Assembly: GCA_965207835.1 (NCBI GenBank)
Contig: CBDBNQ010000002.1
Span: 1,713,224-1,777,223, forward strand
Direction of reading: 5' to 3'
Source: Nitrospirales bacterium
GTDB taxonomy: Bacteria; Nitrospirota; Nitrospiria; Nitrospirales; UBA8639
DNA length: 64,000 nucleotides
Shown here: positions 13,869 through 34,831 of the stretch, piece by piece
Layout: every line of letters starts with the position of its first letter
Position numbering within the stretch: the stretch's first letter is position 1
The notes under the pieces: model-generated
Database searches by the model: none
What the model saw: the letters and a program-made list of their open reading frames with translations, nothing else
Told to the model about the DNA's origin: nothing
Made by a program: the position numbers and the translations under genes

Positions 13869-16800
13869 TTGCAACCCATGGACCAATCTTCCTATCCGGA
13901 AGCGCTCCGGACACAACTGGCAGTCCGGCTGAGTCCGGACAGTGCGCAACACGTCGCCGCGGCTCTTTTTGAAACGGGCGGGGCCGTCCACGTCTCCGAA
14001 TTATTAAACGAACTCTTGGAGCGTTCCGGCAAACTCGCGGGACAGGCTATGGACGAGCTTCCCGAGATGCTGGAACGGTGTGGTCCCGAACCGGTCGTCT
14101 CATGGCTGGACGTGGCCGTGACCCTGGCAGGGCTGTCGGGGGCGATCACCTTGAAATACCTGAAAGAGAGCCCGCGTCTTTTGGGCGTCCTGGATTCCGC
14201 CGTGCTTCGTCAAGCGGTGCTCGAGACGACGCTGGAACTCGCCGACAACGACTCGGAGTTTGCAGCCAACTGCGCGTTTGAATTCTTTCGAAAGGCACCG
14301 GAACTGTTGCTCGCGGATTCACAAACCGACTTGGCTCAATGGGCGGAAATTGGCCGGGAACTGACGGATTGGAATGACGTGTTGGGCATCGAGTTTATCC
14401 GGGAATGTCCGAGGGTGGCCGAAGTCCTGGCTTTGGAAGAGGTGCGGCCCTGGGTGGCCTTCGGTATGAAACTGATGACGCAAAATAGTTTGGGAAAACC
14501 CGATTACGTGGGGATTCTGGAATTCTTTCGCACGAGTCCCGGCCTGCTCGGAGAAATCCCCGATACGGGCTTGCATCCCCAAATTATAAGCGTGGGCTCG
14601 ACCCTGGCGGATCAATCGCCTGAAACGGCCCTGACCTTGTTGGCTGAAGCGCCGGGGCTGATGGCGCTCCTGCCCTCGGCGGAACGGCGCATGAAAGTCC
14701 TCCAATACGGAGGGCTGCTGGCCGAACGGGATGCCGGCGTGACTATGGAATATTTTCGCCGGGCACCGGAGGTAATCCGTCTGGGTGATGGCGCGGAAGG
14801 CCGGGACGAAGCCTTTGAAACGTGGTTCCGTGGTGGTATGGAAGTGTTGGACTACAGCCCGGAGGGCGCACGCGCGTATTTTGCTCTCGAAACCTCGAAG
14901 GCATTGAGCGCGATCGAACAGGCGACCAACAACGTGCCGCTTCGACAGGTGGCGCGTTCGTTGAAACTGCTGGGCCACATGATCTGCGGCCAACCCGTGC
15001 AGATTGAATCCCTGGCCGATGCGACGCAACGGCCTCGACTGGAGATGAACGCCGAGGGCCCCATGGTCTATCTGCCTTCGATCATGAACCGGTTTTCGGT
15101 GAAGGACCAGAACGCTCGAAGCTATACAGTCACGTTGGCGCATGAGGTCGGGCACGTGGAGTTTGGAACGTATCGAATCGATATGCCGTTGCTTCGGACC
15201 CTGGCGCAACGGGTGGCGGATCGCTATCGACTCGATGCGAGTGCTCCGGACATCGACTGCTTGACGGATTTTTTTGCCCTCTATCCGCAAAAAGGGGTGA
15301 TCCGGGATCTGTGGACCATCCTTGAAGACGCACGCGTGGAGTTCTTATTGCAGCAGGAATATCCGGGACTTCGGGATGATTTGGCCGCCGTGTCCAGAGC
15401 GTCGGTGCAGACCCGGTCCTTGCTCCATGGCATGACGGCCAGGGAGATGGTGCTGGACGAGTTGTTGCTGTTATTTATGCAAGGAACGGAAAGACCGCAG
15501 ATTCCGGAGAACTTTCAGCGGGTTGTGGACCGGTGTTGGGACGTGGCGCGGACGATTCAGGACCCTCACGCCACGAATGAGCAATCCATCGATCTGGCAG
15601 ACAGGATCTATCAGGTGCTGGATGAGATGATCGGCAGCCTGGAAAGCGTTGTTCCGGATGAAACGGATTCGACGCCGGAGGACAAGGAGGTGGGCATGGG
15701 GCCTCGTGCGGCGGAAGAAACCGCGGGCGGGTATCGAAGCATTACGAATTGGGTCTATCGTGGTGAAATGAATCCGGATTTCGTCCGTGGTGAATCGGCG
15801 GAAACGGATGAAGGCCCGGATGTCCCGGAACAGCCGGAACTGGATTTGGAAACTGCCGGCGCGCCTTCTCCCACTCCGGCGGGTCGAACCGAAGAGATGG
15901 AAACAGGGGAAGCTCATCAGGACGATGCTGATGAACCTGGGGTGCAGCGGTCCGTGCTTGACGAGTATCTGCACGTGCAAGGCGCGGGCGACGGGTTGTT
16001 ACCCGTGCCATCCGGTCAGGAGCAGACGTACGTGTACCCGGAATGGGATGGCGGGATCCAGGACTACCGGCTCAAATGGTGCCGGGTGGTCGAGCGTCCC
16101 GGCGAAGATGGCGGTCAGGATTTCGCTCAACGGGTCATGGAAAAACATGCCCCGGCTATCCGGGTCCTGCGGCGCTATTTTGAAACCATGCGGCCTACGG
16201 GCTTGCAGCGAGTCCACGGCTATGACCATGGCGAGCATTTGGATTTGGATGCCGCGATTCGTCTCGTGGCGGAACGGCGGGCGGGAATCGACCCCTCCGA
16301 CCGGATCTATGACCGGCGTGACAAACGTGAACGCCAGGTCGCCGCGGCGTTTTTGGTCGACATGAGCGGCTCCACGGGCCGGCAATTGGAAACGGGACAG
16401 CGTCGTGTGATCGACGTGGAGAAGGAAGGATTGATTGTGCTTACCGAGGCCTTGGAGGCCATAGGAGACCAATATGCGTTATACGGTTTCTCTGGCCAAG
16501 GGCGGCACCTGGTTGATTTCATGGTGCTGAAGGATTTCAGCGACACCCGGCGCTATCAGATCGGCCAGCGCATTGCGGCCATGACGCCGTTGCAGCAAAA
16601 CCGTGACGGGGCCGCAATCCGGCATGCCGTTCAGAAATTGCTGCGCTGCCCGGCCCGGCACCGGCTGCTCGTCCTGCTGAGTGACGGGCGCCCCCTTGAT
16701 GGGGATTATGGAGAGGAATATGCCTTGGAGGATACCCGCATGGCACTGCGAGAGGCGCGGCAGCAGGGGATCAGTCCTTTTTGCCTGACCATCGATCAAC

Positions 16801-16919
16801 AGGCGAGCGGCTATCTCAAACGCATGTACGGCGACGTTCAATACCTCGTCCTGGATGATATCCTGACCTTGCCTGAACGGTTGCCACGCGTGTATCAACG
16901 TTTGACGGGAAGATCGTGA
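13869..16919 (+). CDS. Large NorD/CbbO-like protein with C-terminal von Willebrand A domain and a central HExxH motif
   Basis: 1016 aa. Has a YPEWD motif, then a vWA MIDAS motif DMSGST and LLSDGRP. TLAHEVGHVEF lies mid-protein, followed by an acidic low-complexity linker. Start is TTG 13869 or ATG 13878, 3-12 nt after the HTH gene stop. Confidence 0.75.
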   Translation: MQPMDQSSYPEALRTQLAVRLSPDSAQHVAAALFETGGAVHVSELLNELLERSGKLAGQAMDELPEMLERCGPEPVVSWLDVAVTLAGLSGAITLKYLKESPRLLGVLDSAVLRQAVLETTLELADNDSEFAANCAFEFFRKAPELLLADSQTDLAQWAEIGRELTDWNDVLGIEFIRECPRVAEVLALEEVRPWVAFGMKLMTQNSLGKPDYVGILEFFRTSPGLLGEIPDTGLHPQIISVGSTLADQSPETALTLLAEAPGLMALLPSAERRMKVLQYGGLLAERDAGVTMEYFRRAPEVIRLGDGAEGRDEAFETWFRGGMEVLDYSPEGARAYFALETSKALSAIEQATNNVPLRQVARSLKLLGHMICGQPVQIESLADATQRPRLEMNAEGPMVYLPSIMNRFSVKDQNARSYTVTLAHEVGHVEFGTYRIDMPLLRTLAQRVADRYRLDASAPDIDCLTDFFALYPQKGVIRDLWTILEDARVEFLLQQEYPGLRDDLAAVSRASVQTRSLLHGMTAREMVLDELLLLFMQGTERPQIPENFQRVVDRCWDVARTIQDPHATNEQSIDLADRIYQVLDEMIGSLESVVPDETDSTPEDKEVGMGPRAAEETAGGYRSITNWVYRGEMNPDFVRGESAETDEGPDVPEQPELDLETAGAPSPTPAGRTEEMETGEAHQDDADEPGVQRSVLDEYLHVQGAGDGLLPVPSGQEQTYVYPEWDGGIQDYRLKWCRVVERPGEDGGQDFAQRVMEKHAPAIRVLRRYFETMRPTGLQRVHGYDHGEHLDLDAAIRLVAERRAGIDPSDRIYDRRDKRERQVAAAFLVDMSGSTGRQLETGQRRVIDVEKEGLIVLTEALEAIGDQYALYGFSGQGRHLVDFMVLKDFSDTRRYQIGQRIAAMTPLQQNRDGAAIRHAVQKLLRCPARHRLLVLLSDGRPLDGDYGEEYALEDTRMALREARQQGISPFCLTIDQQASGYLKRMYGDVQYLVLDDILTLPERLPRVYQRLTGRS

Positions 16920-16965: not shown

Positions 16966-17146
16966 GACTTCACTACGTTACGCTCAGGACGGGCGTTGAC
17001 ACTTTCGTTGTCTCTTCCCGTCATCCCCGGCACAAAGAATTGGATCCGCGATTCAGGATGTCGGGGACGGATCCAGGGTTTGTTGCTTTTTTCTCCCTCT
17101 CCCCTGGAGGGAGAGGGTTGGGGTGAGGGGGCATGGTCAACGAACG
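16966..17146. repeat. Mosaic REP-like intergenic repeat cluster
   Basis: Contains three modules seen elsewhere in the window: ACGCTCAGGAC, GTCATCCCCGG...CGGGGACGGATCCAGGG, and the palindrome CCCTCTCCCCTGGAGGGAGAGGGTTGGGGTGAGGG. Confidence 0.6.
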
Positions 17147-17183
17147 AGTGAATATTGCCACTGTTTACGGATAAATCAACTTG

Positions 17184-17594
17184 ATGAGTGCTGACTCCCC
17201 TGAACAAACAATTCCGCCCTGGCTGTACAAGCTGTTTACCGGGCATCAGTATCCGTACGTCCGTCGCCTGGCCAAATTTGAGAAAAAGGATCGAAAACGC
17301 GGCGAGATGAGTTCCGAACCGTCTCGCGAAGAGATTGATGCCAAATTCTGGGAAGTGTATCCTCGATCCTCAACCAGAATTTTGCAGGAAGTGAAACAGG
17401 GCATGATCGTGAGCTTCACGGAGTTGGGCTCCTATCCGCCCGGAGGCTATCAGGAATTGGTGGACACGCCGGAAGAGTTCCTGGCCCGGGAATATGGAAG
17501 AAAAAAAATCAAGGTGAATTTTTACGACGGAGACAACTTCGTCTGCACCATCAATTTCAAAGTCGGAGGGTGGGCCAGTCATGACGACGACTAG
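17184..17594 (+). CDS. Hypothetical protein
   Basis: 136-aa ORF upstream of mdh on the same strand. No recognisable motifs. Confidence 0.45.
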   Translation: MSADSPEQTIPPWLYKLFTGHQYPYVRRLAKFEKKDRKRGEMSSEPSREEIDAKFWEVYPRSSTRILQEVKQGMIVSFTELGSYPPGGYQELVDTPEEFLAREYGRKKIKVNFYDGDNFVCTINFKVGGWASHDDD

Positions 17595-17639
17595 GGAGAC
17601 TGGCTGGCAGCGTGACTATAATCTAACGTCAGGTGCGTC

Positions 17640-18581
17640 ATGAGTCGACAGAAAATCACCATCGTCGGGGCAGGCAACGTCGGGGGATCCGTTGCGCAGA
17701 GACTGGCCGAGAAGAGTGGATACGACATCGTCCTGGTGGATATTGTGGAAGGCCTGCCGCAGGGTAAAGCCCTGGACTTGGCGCAGGCCGGCGCGGTGTG
17801 CGGCTATGACTCGCCGATTCGTGGAACCGAGCGGTATGAGGATACGGCGGATTCCGACGTGGTGGTGGTGACGTCCGGGATTGCCCGGAAGCCCGGCATG
17901 AGCCGGTCCGAATTACTGGAAACCAACACCAACATCGTGCGATCCGTCGTGCAGGAAGTGGCTACCCGTTCTCCCGCGGCCGTGCTGGTCATCGTGGCCA
18001 ATCCGTTGGACGCCATGACGTACGTCGCCTACCGGGTGAGCGGGTTTCCCAAACAACGGGTCGTGGGCATGGCCGGGATTCTGGACTCCGCCCGCTTCTG
18101 CACGTTTATCGCCCAGGAGTTGAACGTCTCGGTCCACAACGTCCACGCCATGGTGTTGGGCGGGCATGGGGATGCGATGGTGCCCCTCATCCGACATACC
18201 ACGGTGGCCGGTCGTCCCGTGGATCAATGGATGTCGCAAGAGCGGCTTGATGCCCTGGTGAAGCGAACACGCGGCGGCGGTGGAGAAATCGTCAGTCTCC
18301 TCAAGACGGGGAGTGCCTATTACGCGCCTGCGGCATCGGTGGTCGAAATGGTCGAGGCCATTATCCGTGATGAACACAAAGTGCTGCCCTGTGCTGCCCT
18401 GTGTGAAGGCGAGTACGGCCTGAAAGGGACGTATATGGGGGTGCCGATCCGATTGGGGAAAACCGGCGTCGAAGAAATTCTCGAATATGACCTGACGCCC
18501 GACGAAAAAGCCGCGTTCGAAGAATCGGCCCAGGGCGTCAGGGAACTATGCCAAGAAGTCGATAAAATCCTCGGCTTGTAA
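17640..18581 (+). CDS. mdh: Malate dehydrogenase (LDH-like MDH family)
   Basis: 313 aa. [11 protein letters not shown] Rossmann motif and full-length similarity to bacterial LDH-type MDH. Confidence 0.92.
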
Positions 18582-18585
18582 TCCG

Positions 18586-18723
18586 CTACTGCAATTTCTC
18601 AGCCAGCACCTTTTCCGTTTGTTTCCTGCGGTATTCTTCCAGGCTCTTTTTGATCCCCGAATCTTCCAGCGCCAGGATCGCGGCCGCGATCCTGGCGGCG
18701 TTGGCTGCGCCGGCTTCGCCGAT
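18586..18723 (-). pseudogene. Orphan fragment equivalent to the last 45 codons plus stop of purE
   Basis: Aligns codon for codon with 20781-20918 (109/138 nt identical by my count). Would encode [45 protein letters not shown]. An in-frame stop lies immediately upstream, so it is not part of a gene. Confidence 0.65.
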
Positions 18724-18785
18724 GAATTGAAGGCTGCGTCAAGCGTGACGATGTAGTGACATTATAGCTGCCGCGCGGTCAGTAA

Positions 18786-19325
18786 TCATGGGTGATGCCT
18801 CCAATCAAAACGAACTTCAATCTCCCGCAGCATGTCAAACGTATCCTGGTAAATGACGCCGAACTGTCGGCAAACGTTGGGTAGAGGCACTCGTTTCTTT
18901 ACATCCGGGTTGAATTTCTCCTGGGTAACCACGGTTGCGTTATGTCCCTTGGCGTAGGCGGCAACCCACCCATCGGCTACTCTTGCGAACTCCGCTTTTG
19001 CGTCAGGTCGAAATTGGTCATTTCTTCGGACCCAGTCCATCATTTCCGCGAAAGCATCTACGACCGACTGCTCTGCTGATGATATGAAGAGATCGTTTGG
19101 TGCATTTTTCACCCACTCGGCCAACTTGTCTGGAGTATCCTGATTATTTGGCCCTTCCATCAATTCAGCACGAACCCGATCTATACTCAACATTCGTCTC
19201 TCTTGGCTATAGTGTGTCAGGCATTCCCAGAAACCGGGGCACAGGTCTTGCGCGTAGTAGCGACGGTGTGCCTCTATGAAGATGTTCGTATCTAACACAA
19301 ACAACTTTTGCGCGTGGTTCATCAA
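18786..19325 (-). CDS. DUF4411-like (PIN-like fold) protein
   Basis: 179 aa. FVLDTNIFIEAHRRYY...FWE...ADGWVAAYAKGHNATVVTQEK...VPLPNVCRQFGV matches my recollection of the DUF4411 pattern. Confidence 0.65.
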   Translation of the reverse strand: MMNHAQKLFVLDTNIFIEAHRRYYAQDLCPGFWECLTHYSQERRMLSIDRVRAELMEGPNNQDTPDKLAEWVKNAPNDLFISSAEQSVVDAFAEMMDWVRRNDQFRPDAKAEFARVADGWVAAYAKGHNATVVTQEKFNPDVKKRVPLPNVCRQFGVIYQDTFDMLREIEVRFDWRHHP

Positions 19326-20494
19326 AGTAGCATGCTCATCTTTTTCGGCATTCTTTCAAAGGTATCTCCTTTCAGGCCGGTGAGGCTATACGCTTCACGA
19401 TAGAGCAGTCGCCCTTCTTTGACCGCGCGGATGATTGCGGTGCCAAAGCGTGGGCCTATGCGCCATTTCTGGGTGTTCCAAAAATCGCCGCCGTCTGCTT
19501 GGTCCTGTTGTCGGCTGTGCCATTCAGTGTCCTGATATTCCTGATAGAACCTGAAGAATTCATCCTGATCGATTAAATCGAGATCAAGGGCACGACGCGC
19601 TGCCACAAGAGAACTGACTTTGAAGTGACGAGCAATCGCCTGATAACGATCATTCGCTTGCTTGGCGGTATGCCAGAAATTGTTTAAATCGTCCTTCGGT
19701 ACCAGAAATTCAGCAGCCGCCTGATTGCAGAAACGCTCTGTGGCATGGGGCGCTGGCTGCAAGTTTTGGAAAATGGATACACCTGTCTCTCCCACAAAGA
19801 GGTGTGCCAGTTCGTGGGCGAAAGTGAACATCTGCGCTGCCTTGAAGTCAGCGCTATTTACAAAGATAAGTGGAGCATACTCGTCAACGAGAGCAAAACC
19901 TTGAAACTCATCAGAGGCTAGCTTGCGTCGCGTGTTGTTTCCCACGATGCCATTGAAAACCACCAGGACACCGGCATCTTCTGCTTGATCCCGTAGAACC
20001 TTAAGCGCATCCGTCCAAGTGGACACTTGCGAGGCCCAGTCGTGGGACAGTTGCAATGCCTCACGCATGGCAGCAGCGACTTGCCGTGGATGTGCATCAA
20101 TTCTGTAGGCTCCAACGAAGTTCAGAGGTGCGGCGTCATCTTCAATGAGTTCATCGCGCATCCAGGCCTGCCGTCGCTGCATAATCTCCACGGTTTCGAG
20201 AAGGTCTGGACTCGGCCGCGGCGGTGTGTCATCGCTTCGGGTCCGGAAATCAGGTATTGGCAAGTGGTCCTCAGGTGGTTCTGTTAGGTACAGAAAACCC
20301 AGAGGGGTATGGGTACGTTGGGCAAGCCTATCTGCCTGGGCAACACTGATCCTACCGGATTGTTCCCACTCCAAGACGCGTTCTGGTCTCACCTGCATCT
20401 TTTGGGCAAGTTCATCCTGGCTGACGCGCAGTCGCTCTCGTGCCCATCGCAACACGTCAGGCTGCAACGTTATCTTCAAGCCTCGGCTACTCAT
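19322..20494 (-). CDS. XRE-type HTH fused to ImmA/IrrE (COG2856) zinc metallopeptidase
   Basis: 390 aa with an N-terminal HTH (RVSQDELAQKMQVRPERVLEWEQ) and an HELAHL zinc motif. 4-nt overlap with the downstream DUF4411 gene. Confidence 0.8.
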   Translation of the reverse strand: MSSRGLKITLQPDVLRWARERLRVSQDELAQKMQVRPERVLEWEQSGRISVAQADRLAQRTHTPLGFLYLTEPPEDHLPIPDFRTRSDDTPPRPSPDLLETVEIMQRRQAWMRDELIEDDAAPLNFVGAYRIDAHPRQVAAAMREALQLSHDWASQVSTWTDALKVLRDQAEDAGVLVVFNGIVGNNTRRKLASDEFQGFALVDEYAPLIFVNSADFKAAQMFTFAHELAHLFVGETGVSIFQNLQPAPHATERFCNQAAAEFLVPKDDLNNFWHTAKQANDRYQAIARHFKVSSLVAARRALDLDLIDQDEFFRFYQEYQDTEWHSRQQDQADGGDFWNTQKWRIGPRFGTAIIRAVKEGRLLYREAYSLTGLKGDTFERMPKKMSMLL

Positions 20495-20780
20495 GGAGTC
20501 TGCTCTTTATCCAGAGAACGCATCAGAATGTTAGTAGCACCATTACTTGGTCCGACTCGTCGGAGTCATCTGGCAGGTCGTCCGTCACCTCACGCCGCTC
20601 AGTTTGCCAGTAACCACAATGGCAATCAAGCGGGAGCTATTCGAAGGATAGCAAGACGCGGGGAAAGCGGGTGGACGGTGAGGGAAGGAACGGGTCAAAG
20701 AAAGCAGGGGCTCTCGCGATATAAGATCTGTTACAAAAGGCTGAACACGAAAAATCAAGAAATCGTGAGACACCCTGTCA

Positions 20781-21278
20781 TCACTGGAGTTTCTCAGCTA
20801 ACACTTTTTCCGTTTGTTTTCTGCGGTACTCTACCAACCGTTCTTTGATCCCCGAATCTTCGAGGGCCAGAATCGCGGCGGCGAAGAGGGCGGCATTGGA
20901 CGAGCCGGCTTCACCGATGGCCAGGGTGGCGACGGGAATGCCCTTGGGCATTTGGACGATGGAGAGCAGGGAATCGAGACCTTGCAGCGCTTTGGATTGC
21001 ATGGGTACACCCAGAACCGGCAAGGTCGTCTTGGCCGCAATCACGCCCGGCAGGTGAGCCGCGCCGCCGGCGCCTGCGATCATGACGCGAATCCCTCGTG
21101 ACTCGGCTTGGCTCACGTATTCGAATAAGGCATCAGGAGCCCGGTGAGCGGAAATCACACGACATTCATTGGCAATGCCAAGCTGCGTCAACGTCTCGCT
21201 GGCCAACCGCATGACGTCCCAATCGCTTTTACTACCCATCACAATGCCGACTAACGGCGTATCGTTTGCTGAAGCCAC
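20781..21278 (-). CDS. purE: 5-(carboxyamino)imidazole ribonucleotide mutase
   Basis: 165 aa with [15 protein letters not shown] and [10 protein letters not shown] motifs. Confidence 0.92.
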
Positions 21279-21418
21279 GAGCGTTCCTCCTTAACCGAAA
21301 TGGGATCGTGAAAGTGGAGCGTTTCGGAAACTCCTTACTGACAGGACAAGAGTGTACTGACTCGTCATTTCATTTACAATCTCACGAGCCGGGTGAATCG
21401 ACACGAGAAAAGATGGAC

Positions 21419-21520
21419 ATAGCAGGACATAGCAAAAAAATAGCAGAAACATAGCATTGGCATAGCATAATCATAGCAGAGTATAGCATAAGCATAGCAT
21501 TGATATAGCAAAACATAGCT
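21419..21520. repeat. Array of ten ATAGCA motifs at 10-11 bp spacing
   Basis: Motif starts at 21419, 21429, 21440, 21451, 21462, 21473, 21483, 21494, 21505 and 21515 (the last is ATAGCT). AT-rich island within a GC-rich genome. Confidence 0.85.
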
Positions 21521-21780
21521 AACTATAAGTACATATAATCGTAAGGCAGAACATAGCGTGAGATGGCGTTCAGGGTCATGTATCGCAATGATTTGCGGAT
21601 GCGGCCTGTTAAGAACGAACATGCCAGGGCACGGTGAACACACGGGCCGAACGGCTGGATGTGCTGGAGTCTAACTCATTGACGTGCAAAGGGTTTTGGT
21701 GCCCGTGTGCAGGAGAACGGCTTGACTGAATGGATGAGAGCCTGTAAATGTTTCATCATTCGTTGATAGGATAATCGGTC

Positions 21781-21863
21781 TACCTCCCCTTGCCCCTCCT
21801 TACAAAGGAGGGAAATGAAGAAGTTCCCTCTCCCCCGGCGGTAGAGGGTTAGGGTGAGGGGGG
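21781..21863. repeat. REP-like intergenic repeat cluster
   Basis: Contains CCTCCCCTTGCCCCTCCTTACAAAGGAGGG plus TTCCCTCTCCCCCGGCGGTAGAGGGTTAGGGTGAGGG modules. Confidence 0.6.
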
Positions 21864-21932
21864 AATGGCCGACGAATGCATGAACACATACAATGACAGC
21901 TTGGGCGCGTCTCCCGGATTGAGGCATTTTTT

Positions 21933-23240
21933 ATGACGGAAGCATTTCCCCTTCGATTACTGGCTCCGCTCGATGGTGAGCCGTGGGATATTGACGGCTA
22001 CGTCAAACGCGGCGGGTATGAGGCGTGGCAACAAGTGATTCGGGACGCCGACCCCGACAGGGTGATTGGTGAGTTGAAGCGAGCGAGTCTGCGAGGCCGG
22101 GGCGGAGCCGGATTTCCGACGGGCTTGAAATGGGATAAGGTCGTGCATCACCGGGAGACGGAACGATATTTCGTCTGCAACGCCGGCGAGCATGAGCCGG
22201 GCACGTTCAAAGACCGGTACCTTGTCGAGCACCACCCGCATCAGTTGATTGAAGGATGTTTGATCGCGGCCTTTACCATTGGTGCGCGGGAGGCCTACAT
22301 TTATTTGAACGCTGAATTTCTGGCAGCCCGGGCGAGTCTGGAAAAGGCCTTGGAGCAAGCCAGGACACGTGGATTTCTCGGCCAAAACGTTCTGGGGTCC
22401 GGGATGGACCTTGAATTGGAGATTTTTGAAGGGCATGGAAGTTACGTCGCCGGCGAGGAAACCGCGATGTTGGAGTCCATGCAGGGTCGTCCGGCGCAAC
22501 CAAAGGAAAAGCCGCCGTTTTACCCCACCGAGTTCGGGCTTCACGGAAAACCGACCCTGGTGAACAACGTCGAAACCCTGTCTCACGTGCCGCACTTGTT
22601 GCGCAATGGGGCGCAATGGTTTACGGCAGTGGGTGCGGAAAAGAGTCCAGGAACCATGTTGTTTTCGTTGAGCGGGGCCGTCAATCGTCCGGGCGTGTAT
22701 GAATTGCCTTTGGGGACGCCGTTGCGCCATCTGATCGAAGAATGCGGAGGAGGCGTTCCACATGGCCGCGGGCTCAAAGCCATCTTTCCTGGGGGACCGT
22801 CCTTTGCCATGATGGGGCCTGAAGCCTTGGACCTGCCCATGGATTTCGATGCCTTGAAGCAGGCCGGGACCGGGTTGGGGTCGGCCGGGGTGATTGTCGT
22901 CGATGATGCCACCTGTATGGTGGGTCAGACCCTCAAGCTCTCAACGTTTTTTCGGGAGGAAAGTTGCGGGCAATGTCCGCCCTGCAGGATTGGGACGGAG
23001 CATCTGGAAGAACTGGTGGCGAAAATCGAGGAGGGGAACGGGACACGGGAAGATCTGGATAAACTCTTGCAGATTTGCGGGTTCGTCAAAGGCACGGGCT
23101 ATTGCACGTTGGTGACGGGCGCCGCCGTCCTGGTCCAAAACAGTCTTCGGCTGTTCCGGCACGAATTCGAGGAGCACGTCGCCAAGCGAGCGTGTCCGTT
23201 TCATCCGACCGCCACGGAACCGGCGATTGCCGTGGGGTGA
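21933..23240 (+). CDS. NuoF-like NAD(H)/FMN-binding [4Fe-4S] flavoprotein (complex I 51-kDa subunit family), stand-alone
   Basis: 435 aa with GRGGAGFPTG, GEHEPGTFKDR and ESCGQCPPCRIG motifs. No nuoE or nuoG neighbours. Confidence 0.85.
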   Translation: MTEAFPLRLLAPLDGEPWDIDGYVKRGGYEAWQQVIRDADPDRVIGELKRASLRGRGGAGFPTGLKWDKVVHHRETERYFVCNAGEHEPGTFKDRYLVEHHPHQLIEGCLIAAFTIGAREAYIYLNAEFLAARASLEKALEQARTRGFLGQNVLGSGMDLELEIFEGHGSYVAGEETAMLESMQGRPAQPKEKPPFYPTEFGLHGKPTLVNNVETLSHVPHLLRNGAQWFTAVGAEKSPGTMLFSLSGAVNRPGVYELPLGTPLRHLIEECGGGVPHGRGLKAIFPGGPSFAMMGPEALDLPMDFDALKQAGTGLGSAGVIVVDDATCMVGQTLKLSTFFREESCGQCPPCRIGTEHLEELVAKIEEGNGTREDLDKLLQICGFVKGTGYCTLVTGAAVLVQNSLRLFRHEFEEHVAKRACPFHPTATEPAIAVG

Positions 23241-33627: not shown

Positions 33628-33814
33628 AAATTTTTCTGTCATCCTTGCGCACGCGAGGAACCAGGGTCTTTATCCTTACGAACGGCGCAAGAAAGAAAGA
33701 CCCTGGATCCCCGATCAAGTCGGGGATGACAGCAGGGGAATAACCGTAAGTCGGGTTGGCCCTTCGACTACGCTCAGGACAGGCGTAGCGTAACCCGACA
33801 GCGTGCCTTCTATT
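33521..33814. repeat. Direct repeat copy 1 (last 107 bp of glnS plus downstream REP-rich spacer)
   Basis: 294 bp, ~284/294 identical to 36745-37038 by my count. Confidence 0.9.
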
Positions 33815-33869: not shown

Positions 33870-34831
33870 ATGGCTGTCAACAGAGATAAACCTGACCGGT
33901 GGAGACAGGATATTGCGCAGTCGGTGGATATGTACAACGACTGGTTCGTACGGTTTGCGCCGGCGGCTTATCGCACGACGAGGGTGCAGACAACAAAGGA
34001 GGTCGAGGCGACACTGAAAGCGACGAACAATTTGTCAGATATCAGCGTGGCGTTGCTAAAAGCAAAGCCCTCTGCCCTACCGACATTGCGGATGTCTACC
34101 TGCCCACCTTTGGCCGTGGATCGTTTGATCGGTCTGGCAGGTATTTCGAAGAATCTTGTTAAGGTAATGGAAAAGGAAGCGAAACTCCCGCCACTGATGC
34201 CACAACGGGAGCTGGACAGTGATCTCGAGAAAATCGGGGAGACTATCGAGAAGATGGCCGACCCGGACATCTTCGTCTGGCTGGAACGTGGCGACAATCC
34301 GTCTAAACAGGAATTACACCGAGCGGCGACGATCGTTGCGGACCGTCTGTGTGGTGCGGTTGCAAATCCGATTATTCGGAATGCGCAGGAAAAGCGCCAA
34401 CTTGGCGCAGTTGCGGAGTGGCTGACGGCGTTGGGCTATCAAAATCTGCCTGCAGGTGAAGGCACAAAATATAGCGACATGCAGCCAGGGACATTCTCGT
34501 TCCGGCTGAATGTTCCAATTAAGCAGAAAAAACCCGCAGATCGGTCAACATTCCTGTGGACGCTGTCATCATGCCGAAGAGCGCAAAAACAGGTGAGTTG
34601 CCGTTACTCGTCGAAGCGAAATCAGCGGGTGATTTCACGAATGTTAACAAACGGCGCAAGGAAGAGGCCGCAAAGATGAACCAGTTGCGACGGACTTATG
34701 GCAAGGACGTACGGTTCATTTTATTCCTATGCGGATATTTCGACAGCGGCTATCTCGGTTATGAAGCTGCGGAAGGCATTGACTGGGTGTGGGAGCACCG
34801 TATAGACGATCTCGGGGAGTTTGGACTTTAG
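33870..34831 (+). pseudogene. Type II restriction endonuclease (XamI-like by recollection), frameshifted
   Basis: ORFs 33870..34679 and 34556..34831 are two frames of one gene. The frame change must lie between 34523 and 34556, and an A6 run sits at 34527-34532. One added base restores ...NIPVDAVIMPK...LPLLVEAKSAGDFTNVNKRRKEE (D...E.K nuclease-like motif). Confidence 0.65.

Follow-up and report, generated by a model that had tools for sequence, protein, structure and literature searches.

The DNA analysed here, referred to as the window, is a stretch of 64,000 nucleotides (nt) from a Nitrospirales bacterium. Between the housekeeping genes mdh and purE, the window carries a cassette of two genes spanning ~18724 to 20697, of which one encodes a helix-turn-helix (HTH) domain fused to an M78-type zinc peptidase (ImmA/IrrE, COG2856) and the other a DUF4411 protein. 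The cassette is bracketed by two copies of the purE 3' end: one, the attached end, belongs to the functional gene, and the other is an orphan fragment beside mdh. The G+C content of the cassette was 0.48–0.52, compared with ~0.6 in mdh and purE. The coordinates of the individual features are listed in Table 1.

Table 1. Features of the mdh–purE region of the window, with coordinates counted from its first nucleotide.
Feature	Coordinates	Strand	Evidence or remark
mdh, malate dehydrogenase	17640-18581	+	Pfam Ldh_1_N 2.2e-37, Ldh_1_C 2.8e-34; conserved right-hand border of the variable gap
Orphan purE 3' fragment, codons 121-165 + stop	18586-18723	-	Stop 4 nt from the mdh stop
Perfect 28-nt palindrome inside the orphan	18670-18697		Arms CGCCAGGATCGCGG and CCGCGATCCTGGCG; repeat search
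Cassette tail, 62 nt, non-coding	18724-18785	-	Kept in the alignment of the window, L084, L085 and L086; ends at the orphan junction
DUF4411 PIN-like protein, predicted toxin (nuclease)	18786-19325	-	PF14367 6.4e-46
HTH (XRE) + M78/ImmA-IrrE zinc peptidase fusion, predicted antitoxin/regulator	19322-20494	-	Peptidase_M78 7.1e-16, HTH_3 3.9e-5
Cassette-specific upstream region, presumed promoter/operator	20495-20697	-	Conserved in cassette-bearing loci only
Inverted repeat TTGCCA-N10-TGGCAA	20604-20625		Within the cassette upstream region
83 nt downstream of purE, left-hand constant flank of the hotspot	20698-20780	-	blastn and multiple alignment against L081 and L087
Attached purE 3' end, codons 121-165 + stop, KERLVEY allele class	20781-20918	-
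Functional purE (N5-CAIR mutase)	20781-21278	-	Pfam AIRC 8.8e-64; 97% aa identity to P0001

The original prediction, made from the sequence alone, had described a 4-nt overlap of the two cassette genes. This applies if the DUF4411 gene starts at TTG; with the ATG start, which was the choice of the gene callers in relatives, the overlap is 1 nt (TGATG). In every locus seen, the pair was co-oriented and overlapped by 1 or 4 nt, and the two genes are read as translationally coupled. The upstream region of the cassette is presumed to act as an operator. A scan for promoters and terminators returned matches no more numerous than those in shuffled sequences, and an Rfam search of the tail and spacer gave nothing credible. 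The end of the cassette tail reads ...GCAGCCTTCAATTC.

The proposed identities of both gene products were borne out by profile searches (Table 1). The DUF4411 protein matched PF14367 with 156.5 bits (cut-off 23.5) over positions 1–159 of 159, and its match to the Pfam PIN family, at 19.9 bits, was under the threshold of 23.6. Among 20 homologues, residues D12, E54 and D118 were invariant and E136 nearly so. The AlphaFold2 model of this protein had a confidence score (pLDDT) of 86, and its top 26 Foldseek matches were VapC/FitB/PIN proteins. The HTH-M78 protein matched PF06114 with 58.6 bits (cut-off 22) and PF01381 with 24.0 bits (cut-off 23), and the HExxH zinc motif (HELAH) was read in its translation. 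A match to an NCBIfam "repressor/antitoxin" model lay far under that model's cut-off.

Both proteins were also compared with the solved structures PDB 9VZY/9VZZ, which comprise a 393-aa HTH cro/C1-type protein and a 162-aa DUF4411 protein. Although distant in sequence, the two window proteins matched these components over nearly their full length, the HTH-M78 protein with chain A of 9VZY at E 1.7e-18 (residues 11–358) and the DUF4411 protein with the DUF4411 chain at E 5e-4. Since both components of the solved complex are matched, homologous partners bind each other, and by analogy we infer binding between the two proteins of the window.

The pairing of HTH-DUF955 with DUF4411.1 has been described as a predicted, three-component toxin-antitoxin system, and outside Actinobacteria the DUF4411 genes follow genes in which DUF955 and HTH are fused (Matelska et al. 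2017, PMC5499597). These modules and the window have in common the same two Pfam families, the position of DUF4411 downstream of the fused HTH-peptidase gene, and a single-domain DUF4411 protein with conserved acidic residues; no architectural difference was observed, and the window provides one more member, from a Nitrospira-like genome. A second comparison concerned RosmerTA (RmrT/RmrA), an anti-phage system with experimental support whose antitoxin contains a Zn-peptidase (Millman et al. 2022 preprint; Ernits et al. 2023); for antitoxins of the ImmA type, an association with PIN-like domains has been reported. As in the window, the RosmerTA antitoxin combines an HTH with an ImmA-like Zn-peptidase, and it pairs with a swappable toxin. 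The HTH-M78 protein was matched by 14 PADLOC RmrA profiles (best 7.2e-17) and by CapP, and in PADLOC PDLC03953 its residues 12–327 aligned to positions 7–305 of 373. In contrast, no RmrT profile matched the DUF4411 protein, and among the RmrT toxins characterised is a protein that depolarises membranes, not a PIN nuclease. A likeness to VapBC was also observed, as the predicted DUF4411 fold superposes on VapC toxins (TM score ~0.7 on the target) with four acidic residues conserved; however, the window antitoxin is a 390-aa HTH-metallopeptidase instead of a small VapB, and identity to VapC was 14–18%.

The HTH-M78/DUF4411 pair is therefore a predicted two-gene toxin-antitoxin module of a described type, and by analogy its function is probably anti-phage. 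The toxin-antitoxin or abortive-infection reading of the original prediction gained support from the described pairing, the 9VZY matches, the conserved PIN residues, and the restriction-modification contexts reported below. The module itself is a further member of a known, structurally characterised and little-studied family, not a new kind of system; no published function was found for the HTH-M78/DUF4411 family, the solved complex notwithstanding. By analogy with such systems, the HTH-peptidase would bind and neutralise the nuclease and repress its own operon, a phage- or stress-derived signal would inactivate the HTH-peptidase, and the released PIN-like nuclease would cut RNA and so bring about cell arrest.

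Related pairs were observed in other genomic contexts, the loci of which are designated here by L numbers. In L167 and L169, the peptidases were 86% and 77% identical to that of the window, respectively. The pair in L167 (4899–9609) lies directly upstream of hsdR and overlaps it, and in L169 (4630–15173) an HsdS fragment, AAA_15/21 genes, DarT-Macro, and hsdR are present in the same island. On an Acetobacter plasmid (L172, NZ_CP043507.1 68919–78390), the gene order is hsdM-hsdS-ImmA/IrrE-DUF4411-Abi-hsdR. The pair was repeatedly nested in type I restriction-modification (R-M) operons between hsdS and hsdR, with an overlap to hsdR of sometimes 4 nt and once beside DarT-Macro, and the family was present on 39 plasmid records. 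An IMG/VR scan with the HTH-M78 protein returned no relatives, and a phage collection contained only two records at ~30% identity, so that no evidence was obtained of the cassette being phage-borne. Judged from these gene neighbourhoods, the contexts in R-M, Abi, and DarTG islands point to a defence role, and the near-identical natural variants described below, together with the recurrent type I R-M contexts, would support an immune role for the family.

The orphan fragment was characterised by repeat search and alignment. A single long direct repeat was detected in the interval 17000–22500, formed by 18588–18724 and 20783–20919 (137 nt, 81% identity, spacing 2195). Pairwise alignment of the orphan with the attached end gave ~80% nt identity, with roughly 28 differences; the similarity ends sharply at 18723/20918 on one side and just past the stop codons on the other. 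An in-frame stop is present six codons upstream of the orphan, and no start codon precedes the fragment. When the 45-residue orphan peptide was searched alone, Pfam AIRC was recovered at positions 115–147/148 with E = 1.4e-5 (4.2e-6 for the attached end). The original prediction of a second, orphan copy of the purE 3' end, cut off by an upstream stop, and its purE-like reading were both confirmed.

The orphan differs from functional purE genes in a characteristic manner. Two of its substitutions, L->R and F->I, affect positions otherwise invariant or conservatively substituted in 60 homologues. Both of these radical changes fall within the palindrome at 18670–18697, which is the longest zero-spacer palindrome in the window (the next measures 18 nt, and the mean maximum arm was 8 in 50 shuffles). 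The native right arm recurs on the left as its exact reverse complement, a NotI site lies at the centre of the palindrome, and no T-run follows on either strand. On the simplest reading, the palindrome would have arisen by a single template-switch mutation (quasipalindrome correction) in unselected sequence.

Two allele classes of the purE 3' end, KERLVEY and KKxLEEY, were distinguished within the clade, and both exist as working genes. The KERLVEY class comprises window-A, L081, L084, L086-A, and L087, while L083, L085-A, and L086-B belong to the KKNLEEY class, to which the window orphan (KKSLEEY) is closest. Consistently, the orphan was nearer to the L086_B, L085_A, L084_A, and L083_A alleles (83–86%) than to its own attached copy (80–81%). 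Among 15 copies of the 3' segment, those of the island-bearing clade grouped together (78–90%) and apart from the empty-site clade (61–79%). The attached end of the window was 88% identical to that of L084 and 87% to that of L081, with the lowest value, 78%, for L085. The purE genes of the window and L085 were 93% identical in their 5' parts and 78% in their 3' parts; as they are most alike in the former and least alike in the latter, a breakpoint near codon 120 is indicated.

The position of the orphan was also informative. In more distant relatives, which have an empty site, the purE end lies convergent beside mdh, so that the orphan occupies the place of a resident purE end. On the side of mdh, the nearest relative is L087, in which the end of mdh and the initial 40 nt of the orphan are both present at an identity of 96%; since L087 does not carry the cassette, the orphan should be older than, or independent of, the presence of the cassette. 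On the basis of its ancestral position, its different allele class, and its changes at invariant residues, the orphan is read as the tail of the resident purE, apparently still in its ancestral place beside mdh. The same three features agree with the earlier view that no recent target duplication took place.

The surroundings of this site were compared in Nitrospira-type metagenome contigs, across which the order of a large open reading frame (ORF), orf137, mdh, purE where present, and a nuoF-like gene was kept; the order of the first three was retained in 80 metagenome loci. In the window, a 1016-aa ORF (13869–16919) and a 137-aa ORF (17181–17594) lie upstream of mdh, both without a Pfam or NCBIfam match; their order was kept across 80 such contigs, at 44–87% and 66–92% aa identity, respectively.

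The comparison of mdh–purE synteny revealed two states. In the empty-site relatives (L088, L091, L092, L093, and L096), mdh and purE were convergent, with a spacer of only 50–100 nt and no insert, and in the clade closest to the window (purE 93–97% aa identity) the gap was occupied. Eight related loci carried differing cargo in this gap, including genes for an OLD-like ATPase, GmrSD, AbiJ, DUF2971, and Type ISP enzymes. The gap of L081 (8702–12354) contains genes for a 322-aa protein, a 180-aa protein, and a 645-aa AAA_15/21 ATPase, followed by a 54-nt purE remnant and a 139-aa ORF, and that of L087 (1499–3220) contains the first two of these genes and a 40-nt purE remnant. The 321/322-aa protein of these two loci had no Pfam match, and its C-terminal half resembled nucleoside 2-deoxyribosyltransferase by eye only; the 180-aa protein was secreted-looking. 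GmrSD_C and other genes were found in L083. In L084, L085, and L086, the same HTH-M78/DUF4411 cassette lies directly after purE, and it is followed by genes for Type ISP, AbiJ, and DUF2971 proteins or by a second purE. This second purE, in L086 (7826–8309), follows the cassette, spans codons 5–165, is 92.8% identical in nt to the first copy, and has neither a start nor a promoter. Between it and mdh lie a Macro-domain fragment and a 172-aa ORF. Orphan junctions were thus located at four positions, namely codon 121, codon ~148 (L081), codon ~153 (L087), and codon 5 (L086).

No recombinase gene was present between mdh and purE in the window, as had been stated in the original prediction. A search for an integrase elsewhere in the window, near the four tRNA genes, covered ten ORFs, which proved to be housekeeping enzymes, one restriction enzyme (XamI), or without a family match. 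In the eight related islands, two of which were followed for 10 kb, no tyrosine or serine recombinase was found; only IS1595 and IS3 transposases were observed, ~9 kb downstream in L171. A duplication of the purE 3' end was detected in none of 80 other genomes. A scan of GTDB genomes with purE returned only relatives of <=68% identity, none with an adjacent mdh, and in an exact-sequence look-up neither purE nor mdh of the window was on record. In the distant Nitrospira loci L094–L166, no purE was detected between mdh and the nuoF-like gene, where the gap consisted of ~200 nt or ~970 nt of other sequence; the convergent arrangement of mdh and purE is thus restricted to the marine clade.

By gene content, the cassette site is thus a putative variable defence hotspot between purE and mdh in a marine Nitrospira-like clade. 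Core-gene-flanked defence hotspots without mobile-element markers occur in the Pseudomonas and E. coli pangenomes. The present site resembles them in being fixed between conserved genes and in holding different defence systems in each strain, but differs in that the border gene is partly duplicated and its 3' end is unusually diverse.

The history of the cassette was compared with that of its flanks. Among the window, L084, L085, and L086, the cassette was 94.0–96.0% identical in nt, compared with 86.8–91.6% for the nuoF-like core gene and 89.7–93.1% for the 5' part of purE. At third codon positions, divergence amounted to 0.06–0.13 for the cassette and 0.20–0.29 for the nuoF-like core gene, with similar amino-acid divergence. 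Since the cassette is more alike than the core genes, a much younger common ancestor and movement between genomes are indicated, and on these sequence distances the cassette appears to have spread recently across species.

The purE ends did not follow the same course. In the four genomes sharing the cassette, the attached ends were only 78–88% identical, which argues that they did not travel with it. The homology of the window with L081 and L087 runs through purE and stops at 20698, 83 nt past the stop codon, exactly where the cassette-specific sequence begins; both loci share the attached end and these 83 nt with the window, yet carry other cargo. The original prediction had proposed that the incoming DNA brought its own purE end from another lineage and displaced the resident one. 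That an imported end displaced the resident end agrees with the difference in allele class, but the cassette as its carrier was not supported by these comparisons, and the donor is better sought in another species of the same clade, given identities of 78–90% within that clade against 61–79% to the empty-site clade. The bracketing of the cassette would accordingly be a property of the hotspot that predates, or is independent of, the latest arrival of the cassette.

Taken jointly, the observations make it likely that a toxin-antitoxin module of known type occupies a purE–mdh hotspot beside a stranded resident purE tail, and that cargo is exchanged there without a dedicated recombinase. The orphan would have been left behind at the moment when DNA bearing a different purE 3' end from within the clade was joined at codon 120/121. 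Cargo could then be turned over by homologous or homology-facilitated illegitimate recombination, with purE as one arm and the orphan or mdh as the other. With a donor of the structure purE–cargo–orphan, a first crossover would fall in purE and a second between the donor orphan and the recipient's working 3' end; such a double crossover would leave purE intact and recreate an orphan derived mostly from the recipient's former end. The junctions at codons 5, 148, and 153 could be due to illegitimate joining or to deletions that came later. The explanation preferred here is recombination without a dedicated enzyme, as it would fit all structures seen.

The e14 element and phage 21 integrate in the 3' end of icd in E. 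coli and carry a substitute end. They resemble the window in the intact gene with an imported, diverged 3' end and in the old end persisting beyond the insert as an orphan direct repeat, and the window differs from them in having no integrase or phage genes, in the replacement of cargo between genomes, and in its variable junction positions. An integrative element of this kind, targeting purE codon 120/121 through an attachment site with a replacement 3' end and with its integrase lost or acting in trans, would restore purE at each integration and strand the previous end. Several observations favour it: a direct repeat of the target gene's 3' end was found together with a restored intact gene, the cassette boundaries are sharp, and the junctions of the window and L085 coincide to the nucleotide, share the near-identical 15-nt core ATCGGYGAAGCCGGC, and adjoin orphans of different allele class. 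In addition, ~100 nt from downstream of purE accompany the L085 orphan, as would be expected of a former attached end (tandem accretion), and the 3' segment of purE was more diverged than the 5' part in the island-bearing clade only (16.7% versus 9.0%, compared with 12.4% versus 16.9% in the empty-site clade). Some of the evidence also weighs against the enzyme-free explanation. On either side, only a few tens of bases separate cassette-level from flank-level similarity, and the window and L085 share the junction of the tail with ATCGGCGAAGCCGGC, although identity between their orphans is only 82% beyond nucleotide 15. Sharp borders of this kind are explained less well by enzyme-free recombination than by an integrase, and a recombinase may act in trans. 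The comparisons cover 42–45 codons and a handful of metagenome contigs. As to the module, no PADLOC family matched the DUF4411 protein at E <= 0.01, so that the pair is not a called RosmerTA system by that catalogue. Against an integrative element, the eight islands lacked any tyrosine or serine recombinase, the attached ends did not share the low divergence of the cassette, orphan junctions lie at codons 5, ~148, and ~153 as well, and none of the 80 other genomes showed a purE 3' duplication. An integrative element is consequently regarded as doubtful, and recombination without a dedicated enzyme is retained as the preferred explanation.

The remaining alternatives concern the source of the orphan, the mobility of the cassette, and its function. 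If the genome's own purE 3' end had been duplicated in situ and the unused copy had then decayed, no imported end would be needed. Part of the difference between the copies is indeed decay, as indicated by the changes at invariant residues, and five or six of the ~28 differences can stem from the single palindrome-making event. This explanation is disfavoured because working alleles from other genomes resemble the orphan more than the attached copy of its own genome does, and because the two copies fall in separate allele classes, each known as a working gene; the breakpoint near codon 120 between the window and L085 also speaks against it, and it is considered very improbable. Movement as an integron gene cassette, or as a small non-autonomous transposon, through the action of an enzyme from another locus would suit a discrete 2-kb unit with sharp borders and a divergence below that of the core genome, and toxin-antitoxin cassettes are common in chromosomal integrons. 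On examination, no attC-like fold was found in the 62-nt tail (z -0.5 and -0.2 on the two strands relative to shuffles), and terminal inverted or direct repeats were not above chance (score 17 versus a shuffle mean of 14.8, standard deviation 2.4). With no integron integrase or transposase nearby, and with distant copies sitting in R-M operons without such ends, this route can be given hardly any weight. The pair could also be non-immune, acting either as a switch for stress responses, comparable to IrrE/DdrO or ImmA/ImmR, or as an addiction module that only stabilises the island. Toxin-antitoxin pairs do stabilise islands, and M78 peptidases with XRE partners are described as controlling DNA-damage responses and element induction. 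However, IrrE/DdrO and ImmA/ImmR have transcription as their output instead of a coupled PIN nuclease, the pair was repeatedly observed within R-M, Abi, and DarTG islands, and in the cassette amino-acid divergence was high relative to synonymous divergence, as in defence genes. A non-immune function is thus judged improbable.

With the module belonging to a known family, the novelty of the locus is local. It documents, outside model organisms, a defence hotspot fixed between the two housekeeping genes purE and mdh, and a two-gene toxin-antitoxin cassette that crosses species boundaries with no mobility gene visible. It further indicates that a border gene can record past cargo exchanges in its stranded and mosaic 3' ends. 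More tentatively, the orphan and purE might serve as portable homology arms for recombinase-free reloading of the hotspot, or a trans-acting recombinase might recognise the 15-nt core at codon 121; this suggestion is offered with considerable reserve. If portable arms were at work, a unit of the form purE–cargo–purE(121-165) could insert by double crossover into any relative with a single purE, keeping purE intact and regenerating the orphan, and the seeding and reloading of the defence hotspot would be self-perpetuating.

Several minor features were noted in the neighbourhood. Upstream of purE, an AT-rich stretch (21429–21513) contains at least 4 copies of a motif with an 11-nt period, ATAGCAnnnnn, and its G+C content falls to 0.44. 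A GC-rich palindromic repeat, TCCCTCTCCCC..GGGAGAGGG..GGGTGAGGGGG, was found in intergenic positions at 17094–17131 and 21825–21862 and near 33657, 36885, 41856, and 47745; it flanks the mdh–purE region on both sides, copies are present in related loci as well, and it looks like an element of the repetitive extragenic palindromic (REP) type. Elsewhere in the window, the ORF at 33870–34679, located just after tRNA-Gln and the glutaminyl-tRNA synthetase gene, gave a strong match to the XamI restriction endonuclease (1.9e-67) and is a further defence gene.

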